Notes under the pieces: generated by a model
What the model saw: only the letters and a program-made list of their open reading frames with translations
Databases searched by the model: none
Told to the model about the DNA's origin: nothing
Made by a program: the position numbers and the translations under genes
DNA from: Octopus vulgaris
Lineage: Eukaryota
Direction of reading: 5' to 3'
Assembly (NCBI GenBank): GCA_951406725.2
Contig: OX597815.1
Span: forward strand, 90,334,001-90,398,000
Length of the DNA stretch: 64,000 nucleotides
Shown: positions 6,160-57,638 of the stretch, one piece after another
How the letters are laid out: every line of letters starts with the position of its first letter
Position numbering within the stretch: the stretch's first letter is position 1

Positions 6160-7020
6160 GAAGCCGAAGATTCGATTGGTTGGTGTAGTTGTGTGGGACG
6201 AAGTGGTGTGTAGTGTGGTGGGGTGGTATGGGATATGGGTGAGGATGGGGTGTATTGGGTGAGATGGAGTAGTATAAGGAAAAGAGGAGGTGGGTGGGAA
6301 TGAAGAGAGGAAGTAGTATCAGATGAAGTGAAGAGGGTAGTCAAATGAAGAGAGGAGAGAAGTCAGATGAAGAGAGGGGAGTTGAGCCCATGTGGCGCAA
6401 AGGAGTGAAGAGAAAAGATAGATTAATTCCTGTTCACAGGGAAAGCAGGAGTCCAGATGGCCCCTGTGCATAGGTTTTCCGAACACAGATACTGAAGTGA
6501 ATGATGACAGATGTTTTAGAGCGGAATTAACGCGAGGCCGGGGTGTCATTTCTGAGTCTGAGGTGTTCCACGAACCGGTCAGACAAGCGGCGTCCGTTTG
6601 ACATATATTCAGGGAAGGGCTGAAAGAGCTGGAGATGCAGTAAATGACGTCACTAGAAGTGGAGGTAGAGAACTCGGCGATGTGGTAAGGATGATGTTGA
6701 CTGCCTGTGAGGATGGTAGTATCGGAGAGGTAGAGGCAAGTACGCCAGCGTGGTCAGAACAGGGGAATGAGCCAGGAGTTGGGGCTGGGGAAGAAACTGT
6801 GCATGAGGAGGTCACGCAGGTTGTGGGCACGTTTGAAGGAAGTTGGGGAAGATGTTTGGCGTGGAAAGGTTGGACTGGAGTCGCATGAAGGCTCGGAAAA
6901 TAGTGCGTTGGAAGGACAAGGTGGAGGGGTGGTAGGTAAGGGGAAACGGGAGACGGGAACGGCGGGGTTGGTGCGGGGAGAAAGAGCAGAGTTACGGTTA
7001 TGGAACGTGCCCCGGCAAGG
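6160..7020 (-). mobile_element. Penelope-like element 3' fragment (linker and GIY-YIG endonuclease), frameshifted
   Basis: Across frames: SFKRAHNLRDLLMHS, PGSFPC, DVIYCIS, GRRLSDRFVEHLR, EQELI; typical PLE linker/GIY-YIG motifs, followed by a pyrimidine-rich tail. Confidence 0.8.
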
Positions 7021-7301
7021 GTAGTGCGAATAGTGGTGAGGGGATATATTGATCATAAAAACATACCAAATGAAAAAAGAGTGAACAATGAACAATAGGG
7101 AATATACGAAAGACAGCTAATCTCCAAAAGTCAACGCTAGCCAGTCAGCTATGAGCACTCAACCAGAACGACAATCACAACAAAAAAAAATCAACTGCAA
7201 AGAAAATATCCCATAACGTTACAGTCACAAGTACACACACACGGACATACACACACATACCCTCCCCCGACACACAAAACTGTGTACATATTTATATATA
7301 T

Positions 7302-29864: not shown

Positions 29865-29900
29865 TAAATTAGAGATAAAACCACTATTAGGCAAATCAAA

Positions 29901-31362
29901 CGGAGGCCAAGAACTACAGACCTATCTCTCTGACCTCATACATCAGCAAGGTCATGGAACCAATAGTCAGAAGGAAACTAATCGCTTTCCTTGAAGAAAA
30001 TAACTTGCTGCCTGACACACAACATGGTTTCGGACCAGGAAGGAGCTGCCTACCTCAGCTCCTACAACACTATGACTGGGTGCTGAAACAACTGCTCAAG
30101 CACTCAAGTGTGGAAGTGATATATCTCGACTTTGCAAAGGCCTTTGATAAAGTCGATCATGGAATGATATGTCACAAACTGCGTGATCTTGGCATAGTTG
30201 GAAAATTGGGAGAATGGCTTCATGACTTTCTGAAGGATAGAAGTCAGGTGGTAGTAGCCAATGAGGCCACCTCCATTAACACGCAAATAGTGAGCGGTGT
30301 TCCACAAGGTACTGTATTGGACCGCTACTGTTCATAATGGCCCTCTCAGACATGCCCTCAGCCACGCAGAGAGCCATGATCGCAAGTTATGCAGATGATA
30401 CAAAAGTCTCACAGGCAATACAGAACCCTGATGACACCATGCACCTGAAATGTGAGCTGGACAAAATATACAAGTGGGCTGAAAAGAATAGCATGTATTT
30501 CAATGCTGAAAAGTTTCAAGCTTTATGCTATCAGCATGCAAAACTAAATGCAATACCCAATAAATACACTGGACCTGGAGGGATTGCAATCCCAGAGGCA
30601 CAATCAGTGCGAGACCTGGATATTTACATGAGTGATGATGCAACCTTTCATGGCAATGAAATGTAGGCGGCTGACCGGATGGATTCTTAGAACCTTTAGA
30701 ACAAGTGACCATGATGGTCCTCTGGAGGACACTTGTCCTAAGCTACTTTGACTATTGCATTCAGCTATGGTCACCATCCAGTGTCAAGTTAATCACAGAA
30801 CTTGAGGTGATCCAACGAAGCTACACGAAGAAGATAGCTTCTGTGCAGCATATAAGCTACTGGAAAAGACTCAAGAGATTAAACCTCTATTCCTCAGAGC
30901 GTAGGCGAGAAAGATATGCCATAATATACAACTGGAAGATCCTGGAATGACTTGTCCCAAACTTCCGCATCGAGAGTTACACAAATACTAGAACTGGGCG
31001 CCACTGCATAGTGCTAAGGACTCCAAATTTGCCGTCAAGATGTAGGACATGATACTGTGATAGCCTGGGCTTCAGAGGTCCACAGCTCTTCAATATCCTC
31101 CCGAAGGACCTGCGAGACCTGTATGGGGTGGATGCAGATGTCTTTAAAATAAAACTGGATCTCTTCCTGTCAGGTGTCCCAGATGAACCAACTTCACGGC
31201 AGGAGATGCAGATGAGGGCAGCTGCATCGACCTCTCTCATGCACCAAATGGCAATTGCTAAAAAGCATTCGTGAAGTAAAATCATGGAGCAACACCGAAT
31301 GGCGGTGCCCCAGCATGGCCACGACTCGTGAGCTGATACTAGATAAAATAAATAGATAAAAT
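29901..31362 (+). mobile_element. 5'-truncated CR1/L2-group LINE: RT domain to 3' tail, frameshifted
   Basis: KNYRPISLTS, QHGF, IYLDFAKAFDKVDH, SGVPQGTVL, YADDTK, LWSP, YSSERRRER across ORFs 29954..30337, 30337..30666 and 30705..30950; ends in a short AT-rich repeat tail. Confidence 0.95.
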
Positions 31363-47368: not shown

Positions 47369-48089
47369 CAAGACTGGAATAAAATCCTAGCCCACTTCCG
47401 CTGTTTACAGCAGTGATTCGAAGGAATGAGTGCAGCGTGTGATCGTCGCATTGACCATGACAGAGAAAATTGAGCAGAGAATCTACATCAAATTTTGCCA
47501 AAAGCTTGGTGATACCTACTCAGAAGGCCTAAACAAAGGTTTCAAAAAGATTTTATAGTTCTCGAAATAATCAAGGAGATCTTGTACGACTGATTTGCGA
47601 GTGATTTTTGGGTGAGATGAAAACAGTTTTGGCACAAACTTGGCAGATACATGTCTCATACCCAAATCTCCGGTGATAATGGACTGAACTGAAACGTAAC
47701 ATTCTCTGATAACTCACGGACGGTGATTCGACGATTTCCCCTCACAGCTGCACGCACATCTACGATATTTTTGTCAATTCTGCTGATAGCGGATCCCCCA
47801 AAACGATCGACATTTTTTCGGCCATCTTGGAAACGTCTGAACCACTCGTACCCTTGTGTGCGGCTGATACACTCCTCTCCATACACTTTCTGCAACTTAG
47901 AGTAGGCCTCTGAGTAGTTATCGCCAGTACGACTTTCTCTGTCGTGGTCAATACGACGATCACATGTTCCACACCTTTCCAAGCTGTGTTGTAAGCAACG
48001 GAATTGAGCTAGAACGTTAAAAACTTAGCATGCATGTACAGCTTTTTGTTACTAGGGTAACAGCCCGAATACTTATTGATCAGCCCGCG
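47369..48089 (-). mobile_element. Mariner derivative carrying two inverted 5' ends
   Basis: Minus ORF 47656..47982 (KLQKVYGEECISRTQGYEWFRRFQDGR...NRRITVREL); TIR ...ttgatcagcccgcg|ta; a diverged copy of the same 5' region (MTEKIEQRIYIKFCQKLG) on + at about 47430-47535. Confidence 0.85.
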
Positions 48090-48171
48090 TATACATATTG
48101 TCAAATACGTGCACTAACACATGCAGACACACATACATATATGAACAAACGCTAGGACATATACTTACACA

Positions 48172-49097
48172 CAGGGGTTGGACAAAATAATGAAAACCCT
48201 TTAAAATTTCAAACAGACTTATTTTAACATGTGGTAGGGCCGACTTTGGCAGTAATTACAGCTTAAATTCTACGAGGTATGGACTTGTACAAGGTTTGGA
48301 TTGTTTCCAAAGGAATTTTTGTCCATTTCTCCGTTAAAACCTTCTCCAGTTCTTGTAGTGATGATGGTGGAGGTTATCGACTCCTTACTTGATTTCTTTT
48401 TCTAATATGCACCATAAATGTTCCTTAATATTGAGGTCTGGGTAAAGGATGACTCGTCCGAGAAAATCACATGCTTCTACTGCTCTTGGGACCAATTCTA
48501 TAGGTTTTGACTCCAATCTAAACGCTTTGCAACGTTTGTTTTTGAAAGTAGTGGTTTTCTGATTGCAGCCCTCCCGTGAAATGCGGCTTTGTGCAGCTCC
48601 CGGCGAACAGCTTTTGTAGAAGCTGGGTTCCGGAGATGGTCATTAAGCACTGCAGTAATTTTGGGAGCTGTAGTTTTGTGATCCTTTCTAACAAGTCGCG
48701 TAAGAGTCCGACCATCCTTATCTGACAGTTTTGGTTTTCTTCTGGAGTTTTGATTCGACGAGGAGGTTTTTCCCTCTTCCTCAAAAATTGTCGTTACTTT
48801 TGCGTCAGTACTTCTTGATACACCAAACATTTTGGCTGTGTTGGTTACGCTAGCGCCTGCTGTACGAGCACCAGCAATTTGACTTTTTTTAAAGTCCGAT
48901 AGATATGTCATTTTGATGAATTTTAATTACCTTTTTCTGATAATATCTGAAACGAAAGAGCAATTTTAGCAAAACATATTAAGCAGCACAAATAATAAAT
49001 CAAAAACAAAAATAAACAAGCTTTTGACGGTTTAATAGATATTTCAAAATTATGATGCTTTGATGCTAGGTGTTTCCATTATTTTGTCCTACACCTG
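48172..49097 (-). mobile_element. Tc1-like element, internally deleted, both TIRs present
   Basis: CAGGGGTTGGACAAAATAATGAAAAC ... GTTTCCATTATTTTGTCCTACACCTG|TA; ORF 48498..48911 is the paired HTH region (RKPKLS, RKPLLS); VIFSDESS follows out of frame. Confidence 0.92.
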
Positions 49098-51078: not shown

Positions 51079-51130
<52 letters not shown>

Positions 51131-51131
51131 T
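50976..51131. repeat. (CTAT)n and (TA)n microsatellites flanking the array on the left
   Basis: Direct sequence. Confidence 0.95.
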
Positions 51132-51274
51132 AAATATAAGAGAGTGGTCACTATATTGATCACTCTAGCACCAGTTAATCCAAAAGGTTTCAACCACGAA
51201 AATACATGTTTCCCATGAAAGCCAGTACGACTGTTAGCTCACACGGACAGGGCAAATAAAAAATAACAAAAATA

Positions 51275-51368
51275 CAGATTATTTTGGGACAATTGTTTCG
51301 CTATTAATGAATTAAATGTAATATTACTTACAATAATCCATTTGTAGCTCGTCAGCCAAGACTATCTG
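51275..51368 (-). ncRNA. Type I hammerhead ribozyme, unit 1
   Basis: Minus: cagatagtcTTGG | CTGACGA | GCTA..41 nt..TAGC | GAAA | CAATTG | TC^ | CCAAaataatctg; predicted cleavage between 51288 and 51287. Confidence 0.88.
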
Positions 51369-51806
51369 GATGAAATCCACTCAATCACACGCCAGATTTT
51401 ACCATAACGATAAATACGCGTGTGGTTCAATTGATTACATCCGACGTTATAATTCAAATGCCCCAACCAACAGCGCGCCAAACTCTCACGGAAAACAAAT
51501 ACAGCATTTAGAAATAAATGCAGCATAATTATAATTAATTAATAAGGGTGAGAGAATTAGATACTAATTTAATAGTATATTTATTCCACACCAAGTGGCC
51601 TAGTGCTACGAGAAACCTGGATTATTATAATATTTTATAACATATTATAATATTTTCACAAAATAAATATAAGAGAGTGGTCACTATATTGATCACTCTA
51701 GCACCAGTTAATCCAAAAGGTTTCAACCACGAAAATACATGTTTCCCATGAAAGCCAGTACGACTGTTAGCTCACACGGACAGGGCAAATAAAAAATAAC
51801 AAAATA

Positions 51807-51900
51807 CAGATTATTTTGGGACAATTGTTTCGCTATTAATGAATTAAATGTAATATTACTTACAATAATCCATTTGTAGCTCGTCAGCCAAGACTATCTG
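51807..51900 (-). ncRNA. Type I hammerhead ribozyme, unit 2
   Basis: Same sequence as the unit 1 motif. Confidence 0.88.
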
Positions 51901-52339
51901 GATGAAATCCACTCAATCACACGCCAGATTTTACCATAACGATAAATACGCGTGTGGTTCAATTGATTACATCCGACGTTATAATTCAAATGCCCCAACC
52001 AACAGCGCGCCAAACTCTCACGGAAAACAAATACAGCATTTAGAAATAAATGCAGCATAATTATAATTAATTAATAAGGGTGAGAGAATTAGATACTAAT
52101 TTAATAGTATATTTATTCCACACCAAGTGGCCTAGTGCTACGAGAAACCTGGATTATAATAATATTTTATAACATATTATAATATTTTCACAAAATAAAT
52201 ATAAGAGAGTGGTCACTATATTGATCACTCTAGCACCAGTTAATCCAAAAGGTTTCAACCACGAAAATACATGTTTCCCATGAAAGCCAGTACGACTGTT
52301 AGCTCACACGGACAGGGCAAATAAAAAATAACAAAAATA

Positions 52340-52433
52340 CAGATTATTTTGGGACAATTGTTTCGCTATTAATGAATTAAATGTAATATTACTTACAATA
52401 ATCCATTTGTAGCTCGTCAGCCAAGACTATCTG
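52340..52433 (-). ncRNA. Type I hammerhead ribozyme, unit 3
   Basis: Same sequence as the unit 1 motif. Confidence 0.88.
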
Positions 52434-52872
52434 GATGAAATCCACTCAATCACACGCCAGATTTTACCATAACGATAAATACGCGTGTGGTTCAATTGAT
52501 TACATCCGACGTTATAATTCAAATGCCCCAACCAACAGCGCGCCAAACTCTCACGGAAAACAAATACAGCATTTAGAAATAAATGCAGCATAATTATAAT
52601 TAATTAATAAGGGTGAGAGAATTAGATACTAATTTAATAGTATATTTATTCCACACCAAGTGGCCTAGTGCTACGAGAAACCTGGATTATAATAATATTT
52701 TATAACATATTATAATATTTTCACAAAATAAATATAAGAGAGTGGTCACTATATTGATCACTCTAGCACCAGTTAATCCAAAAGGTTTCAACCACGAAAA
52801 TACATGTTTCCCATGAAAGCCAGTACGACTGTTAGCTCACACGGACAGGGCAAATAAAAAATAACAAAAATA

Positions 52873-52966
52873 CAGATTATTTTGGGACAATTGTTTCGCT
52901 ATTAATGAATTAAATGTAATATTACTTACAATAATCCATTTGTAGCTCGTCAGCCAAGACTATCTG
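52873..52966 (-). ncRNA. Type I hammerhead ribozyme, unit 4
   Basis: Same sequence as the unit 1 motif. Confidence 0.88.
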
Positions 52967-53405
52967 GATGAAATCCACTCAATCACACGCCAGATTTTAC
53001 CATAACGATAAATACGCGTGTGGTTCAATTGATTACATCCGACGTTATAATTCAAATGCCCCAACCAACAGCGCGCCAAACTCTCACGGAAAACAAATAC
53101 AGCATTTAGAAATAAATGCAGCATAATTATAATTAATTAATAAGGGTGAGAGAATTAGATACTAATTTAATAGTATATTTATTCCACACCAAGTGGCCTA
53201 GTGCTACGAGAAACCTGGATTATTATAATATTTTATAACATATTATAATATTTTCACAAAATAAATATAAGAGAGTGGTCACTATATTGATCACTCTAGC
53301 ACCAGTTAATCCAAAAGGTTTCAACCACGAAAATACATGTTTCCCATGAAAGCCAGTACGACTGTTAGCTCACACGGACAGGGCAAATAAAAAATAACAA
53401 AAATA

Positions 53406-53499
53406 CAGATTATTTTGGGACAATTGTTTCGCTATTAATGAATTAAATGTAATATTACTTACAATAATCCATTTGTAGCTTGTCAGCCAAGACTATCTG
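53406..53499 (-). ncRNA. Type I hammerhead ribozyme, unit 5, core mutant G8A (likely inactive)
   Basis: C>T at 53481 turns CUGACGA into CUGACAA. Confidence 0.8.
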
Positions 53500-54032
53500 G
53501 ATGAAATCCACTCAATCACACGCCAGATTTTACCATAACGATAAATACGCGTGTGGTTCAATTGATTACATCCGACGTTATAATTCAAATGCCCCAACCA
53601 ACAGCGCGCCAAACTCTCACGGAAAACAAATACAGCATTTAGAAATAAATGCAGCATAATTATAATTAATTAATAAGAGTGAGAGAATTAGATACTAATT
53701 TAATAGTATATTTATTCCACACCAAGTGGCCTAGTGCTACGAGAAACCTGGATTATTATAATATTTTATAACATATTATAATATTTTCACAAAATGTGAG
53801 CTAACAGTCGTACTGGCTTTCATGGGAAACATGTATTTTCGTGGTTGAAACCTTTTGGATTAACTGGTGCTAGAGTGATCAATATAGTGACCACTCTCTT
53901 ATATTTATTTTGTGAAAATATTATAATATGTTATAAAATATTATAATAATCCAGGTTTCTCGTAGCACTAGGCCACTTGGTGTGGAATAAATATACTATT
54001 AAATTAGTATCTAATTCTCTCACCCTTATTAA

Positions 54033-54036
<4 letters not shown>

Positions 54037-54100
<64 letters not shown>

Positions 54101-54105
54101 GTGTG

Positions 54106-54181
<76 letters not shown>

Positions 54182-54220
54182 TATACATACATAAAGAGAG
54201 ACAGACAGACAGACAGACAG
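54037..54220. repeat. (TA)n / (GACA)n microsatellite flanking the array on the right
   Basis: Direct sequence. Confidence 0.95.
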
Positions 54221-57295: not shown

Positions 57296-57337
57296 GCATG
57301 TAGTTCCACCGCAAATATAATAGGTGGAACTACATGC
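57296..57337. repeat. Perfect 15-bp inverted repeat with a 12-nt loop
   Basis: GCATGTAGTTCCACC-gcaaatataata-GGTGGAACTACATGC. Confidence 0.9.
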
Positions 57338-57638
57338 ATTTTCAACCTCGTGTTGATATCTGGCAGGTAGTTCTACAGATTATATCTTGCAAAGAGGATC
57401 ACACTGACGATCTATATATAAGTTGTGTAAGTAAAATTACGTAATTTATTGATAGTGAAACAATTGTTTGTGATTAATCTATATTTTTGATATTTTTCAT
57501 TTGTCTTGCTCGCTTACGTTTCTGGTATGCTAAATTTTCTGGAGAACAATTCTTAGTGGTTGAGACCATAGCGGATCTTCTTCCAGCATAAGCGTTTCCA
57601 CATAGTGGTTAAAAAATTCCCCTCTTATATTTATGTAT

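Follow-up and report, generated by a model that had tools for sequence, protein, structure and literature searches.

An origin of animal retrozymes from Penelope-like elements (PLEs) is argued from their co-occurrence and from pLTR homology (Li, Clavereau and Pollet 2026, 10.64898/2026.07.22.740005), and a two-pair stem III with a tetraloop is described as the norm for invertebrate retrozyme hammerheads (PMC7229834). In PLE hammerheads the palindromic nature of loop 3 was noted in 2014 (PMC4209133), and both the idea of a double hammerhead and its link to a tandem layout are already in print (PMC4209133; PMC6765202, a 2019 review). Penelope insertions are marked by an inverted copy and by a tail at one end only, with (TA)n as the target of the Hydra clade (PMC8557442). 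Reverse transcription by a Penelope protein begins at two RNA sites lying next to each other, and each strand of the target is extended; the tail corresponds to the gap between the two start sites (PMC11167929).

Here we describe a young non-coding repeat of Octopus vulgaris that carries a type I hammerhead in every one of its 533-bp units and is inserted with Penelope-type marks. The ribozyme likely cuts mainly as a double hammerhead through its palindromic loop, and the unit is likely a retrozyme copied by Penelope enzymes of the Hydra clade.

The hammerhead and its 533-bp unit

In the window, by which we mean the whole stretch of 64,000 nucleotides that was analysed, the hammerhead occupies positions 51275..51368 of the minus strand, is the last full copy of its array, and is recognised by its core, stems, fold and covariation. 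The 5' strand of stem I (51356..51368) pairs with the 3' strand (51287-51275) at 11 of 13 positions, one of them a G-U, and the latter strand contains, by direct reading, the word UAAUCU. The catalytic core C3-A9, CUGACGA at 51349..51355, appears as drawn in PMC4209133 and is followed by a long stem II of 49 nt (51300..51348). The fold of stem II comprises a 4-bp base, a 2x2 internal loop (51344-51343 / 51305-51304), a 9-bp helix, a 5-bp tip and a 6-nt loop. GAAA directly precedes the 8-nt palindrome of stem III and loop 3 (51296-51289), which can form 2 bp as a monomer and 8 bp between two copies, and cleavage, which in hammerheads follows the GUC triplet, is predicted between 51288 and 51287. 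The CUGANGA core, GAAA and NUH stand in order round three stems with stem I open, as in type I hammerheads. The initial annotation had proposed a minus-strand hammerhead with stem I paired at 11 of 13 positions, a stem II of about 49 nt, a 2-bp stem III and an 8-nt palindrome; each of these is found where it was placed, and the motif is confirmed as real.

The folding energy of this region is -25.8 kcal/mol, where 200 shuffled sequences give -13.2 +/- 2.9 (z -4.31) and none of them was as stable, and the stem II hairpin alone gives z -4.8. The lowest-energy fold is an inactive register, in which GAC of the core pairs with the GUC triplet and the two-pair stem III is not formed. Rfam returned no hammerhead match at the gathering score, and up to an E value of 10 only two chance-level matches to other families, a miss of which the 49-nt stem II is the likely cause. 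The hammerhead identity consequently rests on core letters, covariation and genome-wide counts, a match in the Rfam library being no part of the biochemical definition of a hammerhead.

A genome search for the core with a stem II of 30-60 nt and any four-base loop gave 37,104 matches against 1,658 for a reversed control, while the short-stem-II pattern gave 15,379 against 1,231; the long stem II is the majority hammerhead form of this genome. Over both patterns there are about 52,000 hammerhead-core matches against about 2,900 in the controls, a few being counted in both. Since short forms with the same loops are also spread, the length of stem II is not a requirement, and since the long form escapes Rfam, ribozyme surveys of such genomes are likely to undercount.

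In order to follow the stems across families, 60 stretches were taken (57 round listed pattern matches, spread over families with the 533-bp family excluded, and three from another search) and pooled with all other loci, yielding 178 distinct ribozymes in 59 clusters at 70% likeness. The mean stem I run in these clusters is 3.4, against 0.7 in swapped controls, and the basal stem II run 4.3 against 1.7. Pair-by-pair covariation was scored in 12 close relatives hand-picked from 43 sequences: 11 of 24 pairs change on both sides, among them six of the seven core-proximal stem I pairs and five of the ten lower stem II pairs, and 91.9% of cells pair, compared with 32-43% when the strands are slid, the tip of stem II varying on one side only. 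Three of five covariation measures beat all 500 shuffles and two did not (64 and 472 of 500). The 2x2 loop after the fourth stem II pair carries an invariant A on each side in all 12 relatives, and UAAUCU of stem I is likewise invariant in 12 of 12 and its partner strand varies. Canonical hammerheads make loop contacts at this place; it is plausible that the A-rich internal loop at the base of stem II docks on stem I, and protein binding, the other role suggested for stem II in the initial annotation, may belong to its tip.

Five hammerhead copies, all on the minus strand, lie in the window at a spacing of 532-533 bp. Four of them are intact, namely the one described above, copy 4 (51807..51900), copy 3 (52340..52433) and copy 2 (52873..52966); the innermost, copy 1 (53406..53499), has core G8 changed to A and is likely inactive. 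Five turns of the unit make up a main arm of 2.67 kb (51128..53795, minus strand; locus L070), its outer end at a site, e1, near unit position 160, and an inverted arm of 247 bp (53795..54041, plus strand; unit positions 45-291) ends outward at a second site, e2. Both arms run into a (TA)n target microsatellite, at 51081..51127 on the left and 54042..54193 on the right. The 533-bp unit has 33% GC and a single type I hammerhead, and its coding capacity is nil: no frame exceeds 63 stop-free codons round the circle, for which reason a coding role was rejected. The predicted 533-nt circle is strongly self-paired (z -7.4), a value that does not pick a strand, as the opposite one scores -8.0.

A 33-base piece of the ribozyme has 2,046 exact copies in the 2.8-Gb genome and a control piece has none; the 100 copies listed fall, counted by eye, into 33 loci, 14 of them single-copy. 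A DNA search gave 781 candidate loci, of which the 40 best-matching were scored and found to be mostly 99-100% identical, being by that choice the youngest. The repeat is young, dispersed over many chromosomes and recently mobile.

Other elements share the window. An older sister retrozyme at 57308-57632 (plus strand; unit of about 535 bp, copies 87-94% alike, 2,683 candidates) has a hammerhead at 57404-57468 with a different stem I, a U-U at the base of stem II and a GUU triplet, and shares the palindrome and both end motifs with the 533-bp unit; at its 5' end a perfect 14-bp inverted repeat (57299-57338, plus strand) is likely a short fold-back arm. From their motifs, we take 29891-30666 (plus strand) to be a LINE reverse transcriptase fragment and 47656-48926 (minus strand) to be fragments of Tc1/mariner-like transposases.

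Array ends and Penelope-like enzymes

With unit positions numbered from the predicted cut site, all 40 scored arrays end at about 160 (e1) or about 291 (e2), two sites 131 nt apart, and ends at the cut site are not seen as a rule in these loci. Fifteen are one-armed, nine of them ending at e2 and six at e1. The other 25 consist of two arms back to back, both longer than one unit in 15 cases, and all 25 combine an e1 end with an e2 end, an outcome of p ~1e-8 if ends were chosen freely. Other hammerhead families, ORF-bearing loci included, obey this one-of-each rule in 16 of 16 back-to-back pairs, and in them the tail measures about 100-155 nt, compared with 131 nt in the 533-bp family. The arrays are short, near-identical and placed in (TA)n, and they display the Hydra-type marks of an inverted 5'-truncated arm, a tail at one end only and a (TA)n target. 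For an L1-type twin priming on linear RNA, one arm's inner end should meet the outer end of the other; it does not, and this mechanism was rejected. By its testable features the 533-bp unit behaves as, and likely is, an animal retrozyme mobilised by the Penelope machinery, and its strict end rule, which is new for this family, extends the two-start-site mechanism described in vitro to a non-coding passenger. One array (L057, G000:C2:61104611-61107171) was the only one seen with a clear target-site duplication, of about 11-15 bp, and it lies beside (TA)n, not inside it.

In five two-armed loci (L050, L055, L057, L058 and L062) all units of the two arms have a private variant in common, as expected from a single template. 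Mosaic arrays, namely that of the window at unit position 195 and L060, are not predicted by a single monomer circle and argue for mixed templates, later conversion or assembly error, and the end rule, being found in ORF-bearing elements too, does not prove a circle. Fourteen sequencing runs guessed to be RNA contain 70-94% of the unit's words; none is on record as RNA, and they are evidence neither way. The unit is also covered, at about 99%, by contigs from four further runs; that one of these contigs closes on itself after 533 bases does not imply a circle, since tandem DNA gives the same. A contig of run X18 over window positions 51279-51329 (135 bases, depth 6) carries 20 differences, of which 13 or more read as A-to-G when the hammerhead strand is taken, with two inside the palindrome; the pattern resembles A-to-I hyper-editing, for which back-to-back arms may have supplied the double-stranded RNA, in a single contig of a run of unspecified type with no matched DNA.

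Candidate enzymes were sought by a protein search of the genome, in which the best 150 of 8,680 candidates were scored and open frames reached 1,091 aa from stop to stop. ORFs measuring 940-1090 aa fit the Hydra alignment by eye, having RWK, DKT and CxCX5C motifs as well as a nuclease region at the C-terminus, and the three proteins examined in full have RWK or RWR, DKT and the nuclease region, two of them with an intact CxCX5C. Pfam, NCBIfam and PDB gave no matches for the Hydra-type ORFs; in the atlas the first match (0.98) was to RT-related clusters, and the pairwise match to another Penelope reverse transcriptase is weak (E 0.004). Long-stem-II hammerheads adjoin the ORF in most of the 14 ORF loci. 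Judged by these sequences, intact Hydra-clade Penelope elements with like ribozymes exist in the same genome. In the young elements of loci L174-L187, including L175:1676-4618 and L179:1672-4941 (both minus strand), the long intact ORFs contain inserts that are long and rich in Asn; the tails measure about 120 nt and the hammerheads are of the long-stem-II form.

No blastn similarity was found between the 533-bp unit and the 14 ORF loci or five two-armed loci (L143-L147), so that its partner family is not pinned among the PLE loci compared. A Penelope-like remnant, presumably Neptune-like, with a zinc-finger linker and a nuclease motif lies at window positions 6400-7150 (minus strand; 3,079 candidates, relatives 71-77% alike). 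This degenerate element (window 6.4-7.1 kb) was rejected as the partner, its copies being old (70-77% identical) and the hammerhead unlinked: 11 of 12 remnant loci have no linked hammerhead, and an unrelated-looking one stands at the edge of the twelfth.

Loop 3 and probable pairing between copies

For the double-hammerhead model, later papers refer to Forster et al. 1988 and Lunse et al. 2017. Among 100 listed matches of the long-stem-II pattern, inspected by eye, 65 have strict palindromes of ten kinds as loop 3, 27 are self-complementary with G-U and eight are neither, where chance would give 6% strict palindromes and 14% self-complementary with G-U. Because the 59 clusters are related to one another, they do not count as separate events; 46 of them have a strict palindrome as their majority loop, compared with 9.6 +/- 2.6 when the halves are shuffled (maximum 21 in 20,000). 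The AAUU clusters had been enriched by the searches and were hence left out of a second count, which gave 30 of 43 against 5.3 +/- 2.1 (maximum 15). Eight different palindromes serve as cluster-majority loops. As single hairpins the observed loops gain nothing over random ones (2.40 against 2.39), but as duplexes they reach -7.8 against -2.8 kcal/mol, AAUU with -6.4 kcal/mol being among the weakest palindromes seen; this matches the prediction of selection for pairing between copies. Selection for a stable monomer tetraloop was rejected, given the equal hairpin energies and the absence of GNRA or UNCG from the loops of the 59 clusters. Many loops in the genome, those of young ORF-bearing elements included, are one CpG-type change off a palindrome and yet remain G-U paired. 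Covariation of stems and palindrome across families, which the initial annotation had named as its own test, is present, and a stem III of 1-2 bp with a loop kept palindromic is the form of a double hammerhead. This count of loop covariation within one genome is new, and it indicates that selection likely favours loop 3 as a pairing partner of another copy, not as a stable hairpin, and that double-hammerhead folding is likely what is selected.

The folding model was applied to a natural two-unit stretch, in which the double fold costs 5.7 kcal/mol for two cores, compared with 13.6 for two single folds; one single fold in this stretch costs 6.5-7.5 kcal/mol, and 5.9 in a lone unit. The lowest-energy fold of the stretch already has a swapped stem I. 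The computed active share is 6-7e-5 for the lone unit and 9e-5 for the double form in tandem, which is about equal, in a model that omits core and tertiary energy; the omitted core energy would count twice for the dimer. The model gives the dimer only a modest predicted edge, and we regard dimer folding as probably the main cleavage route. The dimer dependence suggested in the initial annotation is accordingly retained in part: the palindrome is kept for pairing, but a strict need goes beyond this evidence, given published two-pair forms that cut as monomers and so modest a modelled edge. Its further suggestion, that a need for dimers explains the tandem layout, is weak. The arrays carry marks of Penelope reverse transcription, a like neighbour on the same strand within 3-4.5 kb was found in none of 60 loci of other palindromic-loop families, and the layout needs no dimer argument, since two cut sites are required to free a unit anyway.

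The same element, mobilised in the same way, could instead carry a ribozyme that cuts well as a monomer, through docking of stem II on stem I or through a protein, with the palindrome as an optional or inherited second route. In its favour, the two-pair stem III with a tetraloop is described as the invertebrate norm, coral and mussel retrozymes reach rates of about 0.8 and 0.1 per min in monomer constructs, 22% of the axolotl two-pair form is cut in an hour (PMC7229834), the stem I of the octopus ribozyme is long (11 of 13), the two internal-loop A residues and UAAUCU are invariant in the 12 relatives as for a tertiary contact, and the model populates the single active fold as much as the double one. 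The lizard Penelope hammerhead moreover needs protein to cut (PMC11167929), and one of nine frog retrozyme dimers cut in vitro (10.64898/2026.07.22.740005). Such a ribozyme has, however, no reason to keep self-complementarity through many loop changes, a stable tetraloop is absent from the 59 clusters, the published monomer constructs could pair in trans under co-transcription, and both axolotl forms, one of them two-pair, cut much better as dimers (PMC7229834). We hold efficient cleavage as a monomer to be unlikely, though it is the most serious of the competing readings.

It is more improbable that the hammerhead is a passenger or a protein-binding fold, and that the element spreads from uncut linear multimer transcripts with little part for cleavage or circles. 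Ribozyme mutants of the lizard Penelope insert normally in vitro, where the hammerhead is dispensable and uncut RNA is the main template (PMC11167929), and the absence of array ends at the cut site as a rule, the mosaic arrays and the one-of-each rule of ORF-bearing elements all suit this reading; against it, many families preserve the core letters and all three stems by compensating changes, the five loci have private variants in all units of both arms, and RNA circles have been shown for coral, mussel and axolotl retrozymes (PMC7229834). An ordinary satellite, grown by unequal crossing-over and bearing a chance hammerhead-like fold, might be imagined from the missing Rfam match and from the readiness of AT-rich DNA to make hairpins. 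Arrays that are short, dispersed, near-identical and ended at two fixed sites in (TA)n speak against it, as does the excess of core-pattern matches over the reversed control; we consider it refuted by these pattern counts, the fixed array ends and the loop covariation, and its chance of being right is very slight.

Proposed cycle and comparison with known systems

Double-hammerhead cleavage and copying by Hydra-clade Penelope enzymes, the reading that we prefer, would give the following cycle. The array would be transcribed on the hammerhead strand, and neighbouring units would exchange strands of stem I and join their palindromes as a stem III of 8 bp, whereby multimers would be cut better than single units. 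Circularisation of the 533-nt piece would then follow, and the circle should be fairly stable, since the lone ribozyme folds mostly in the inactive register. A Penelope protein pair would nick both strands of (TA)n, and from two start sites on one RNA, separated by 131 nt, reverse transcription would produce multi-unit arms placed back to back. The long stem II would likely dock on stem I with the A-rich internal loop at its base, its distal part being perhaps a family-level extra.

More tentatively, and with rather less than even confidence, we hypothesize that the ribozymes of this genome are mainly hammerheads of a long-armed, palindrome-gated form (about 35,000 above background), which standard descriptors have missed; that the palindrome and the swapped stem I act as a family-specific lock, whereby only multimers are cut and single circles survive; and that the Penelope protein pair copies one circle from two fixed sites simultaneously. 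If this is true, the arrays are a natural record of twin rolling-circle reverse transcription.

The octopus unit resembles the non-LTR retrozymes of animals (Cervera and de la Pena 2020, PMC7229834) in being a non-coding, low-GC tandem unit with one type I hammerhead, a highly self-paired predicted circle and a two-pair stem III with a tetraloop. In contrast, the retrozyme units reported there measure 170-400 nt and their canonical stem II has 4 bp and a loop, whereas the octopus unit has 533 nt and a stem II of 49 nt; it also differs from the portions of the retrozyme accounts compared by its two-armed insertions and two fixed ends. RNA circles were shown for those retrozymes (PMC7229834), and for the octopus unit a circle is predicted. 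With PLE hammerheads (Cervera and de la Pena 2014, PMC4209133; PMC6765202) it shares a short palindromic stem III, the proposed dimer folding, a larger than usual stem II and a tandem layout proposed to aid pairing, but in these stem II has 7-8 bp, compared with 49 nt, and stem I 4-5 bp, compared with 13 (PMC4209133). The 533-bp element, unlike PLEs, is without an ORF, and the palindrome is counted here across 59 clusters of one genome.

Hydra-clade PLEs (Craig et al. 2021, PMC8557442) likewise have a (TA)n target, an inverted 5'-truncated copy, a one-end tail and a hammerhead near the 3' end; their tail is 30-40 bp long, against 131 nt in the octopus unit, which has no ORF, and the published hammerhead of Hydra-1_Obim has a 7-bp stem II, against 49 nt. 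Cores split by 35-50 nt are listed in that paper as 'half core', and octopus Naiad (Naiad_Ovul row of its supplement) is listed with such a hammerhead. These 'half core' hammerheads may be the long-stem-II form unrecognised, and if they are real ribozymes of this form, the claim that Naiads lack hammerheads softens. No account of the 533-bp family or of the long stem II was met in the mostly open-access literature searched, though Lunse et al. 2017 and the supplements of PMC7229834 and of the 2026 preprint may show long variants; the prevalence of the long stem II is new.

Since earlier papers already give the class, the idea of dimers and the connection with Penelope, this is not a new system. 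A near-invariant 533-nt unit and intact candidate enzymes in one genome make it possible to test directly if dimers are a requirement of animal retrozymes and if circles serve as templates for Penelope enzymes. The in vitro system of Poseidon of the green anole (Frangieh et al. 2024, PMC11167929) is similar in its two internal RNA start sites, the extension of both target strands and its AT-rich target, and differs from the octopus unit in that its two sites are adjacent, the element is autonomous, and the ribozyme needs protein and is itself not needed for insertion.
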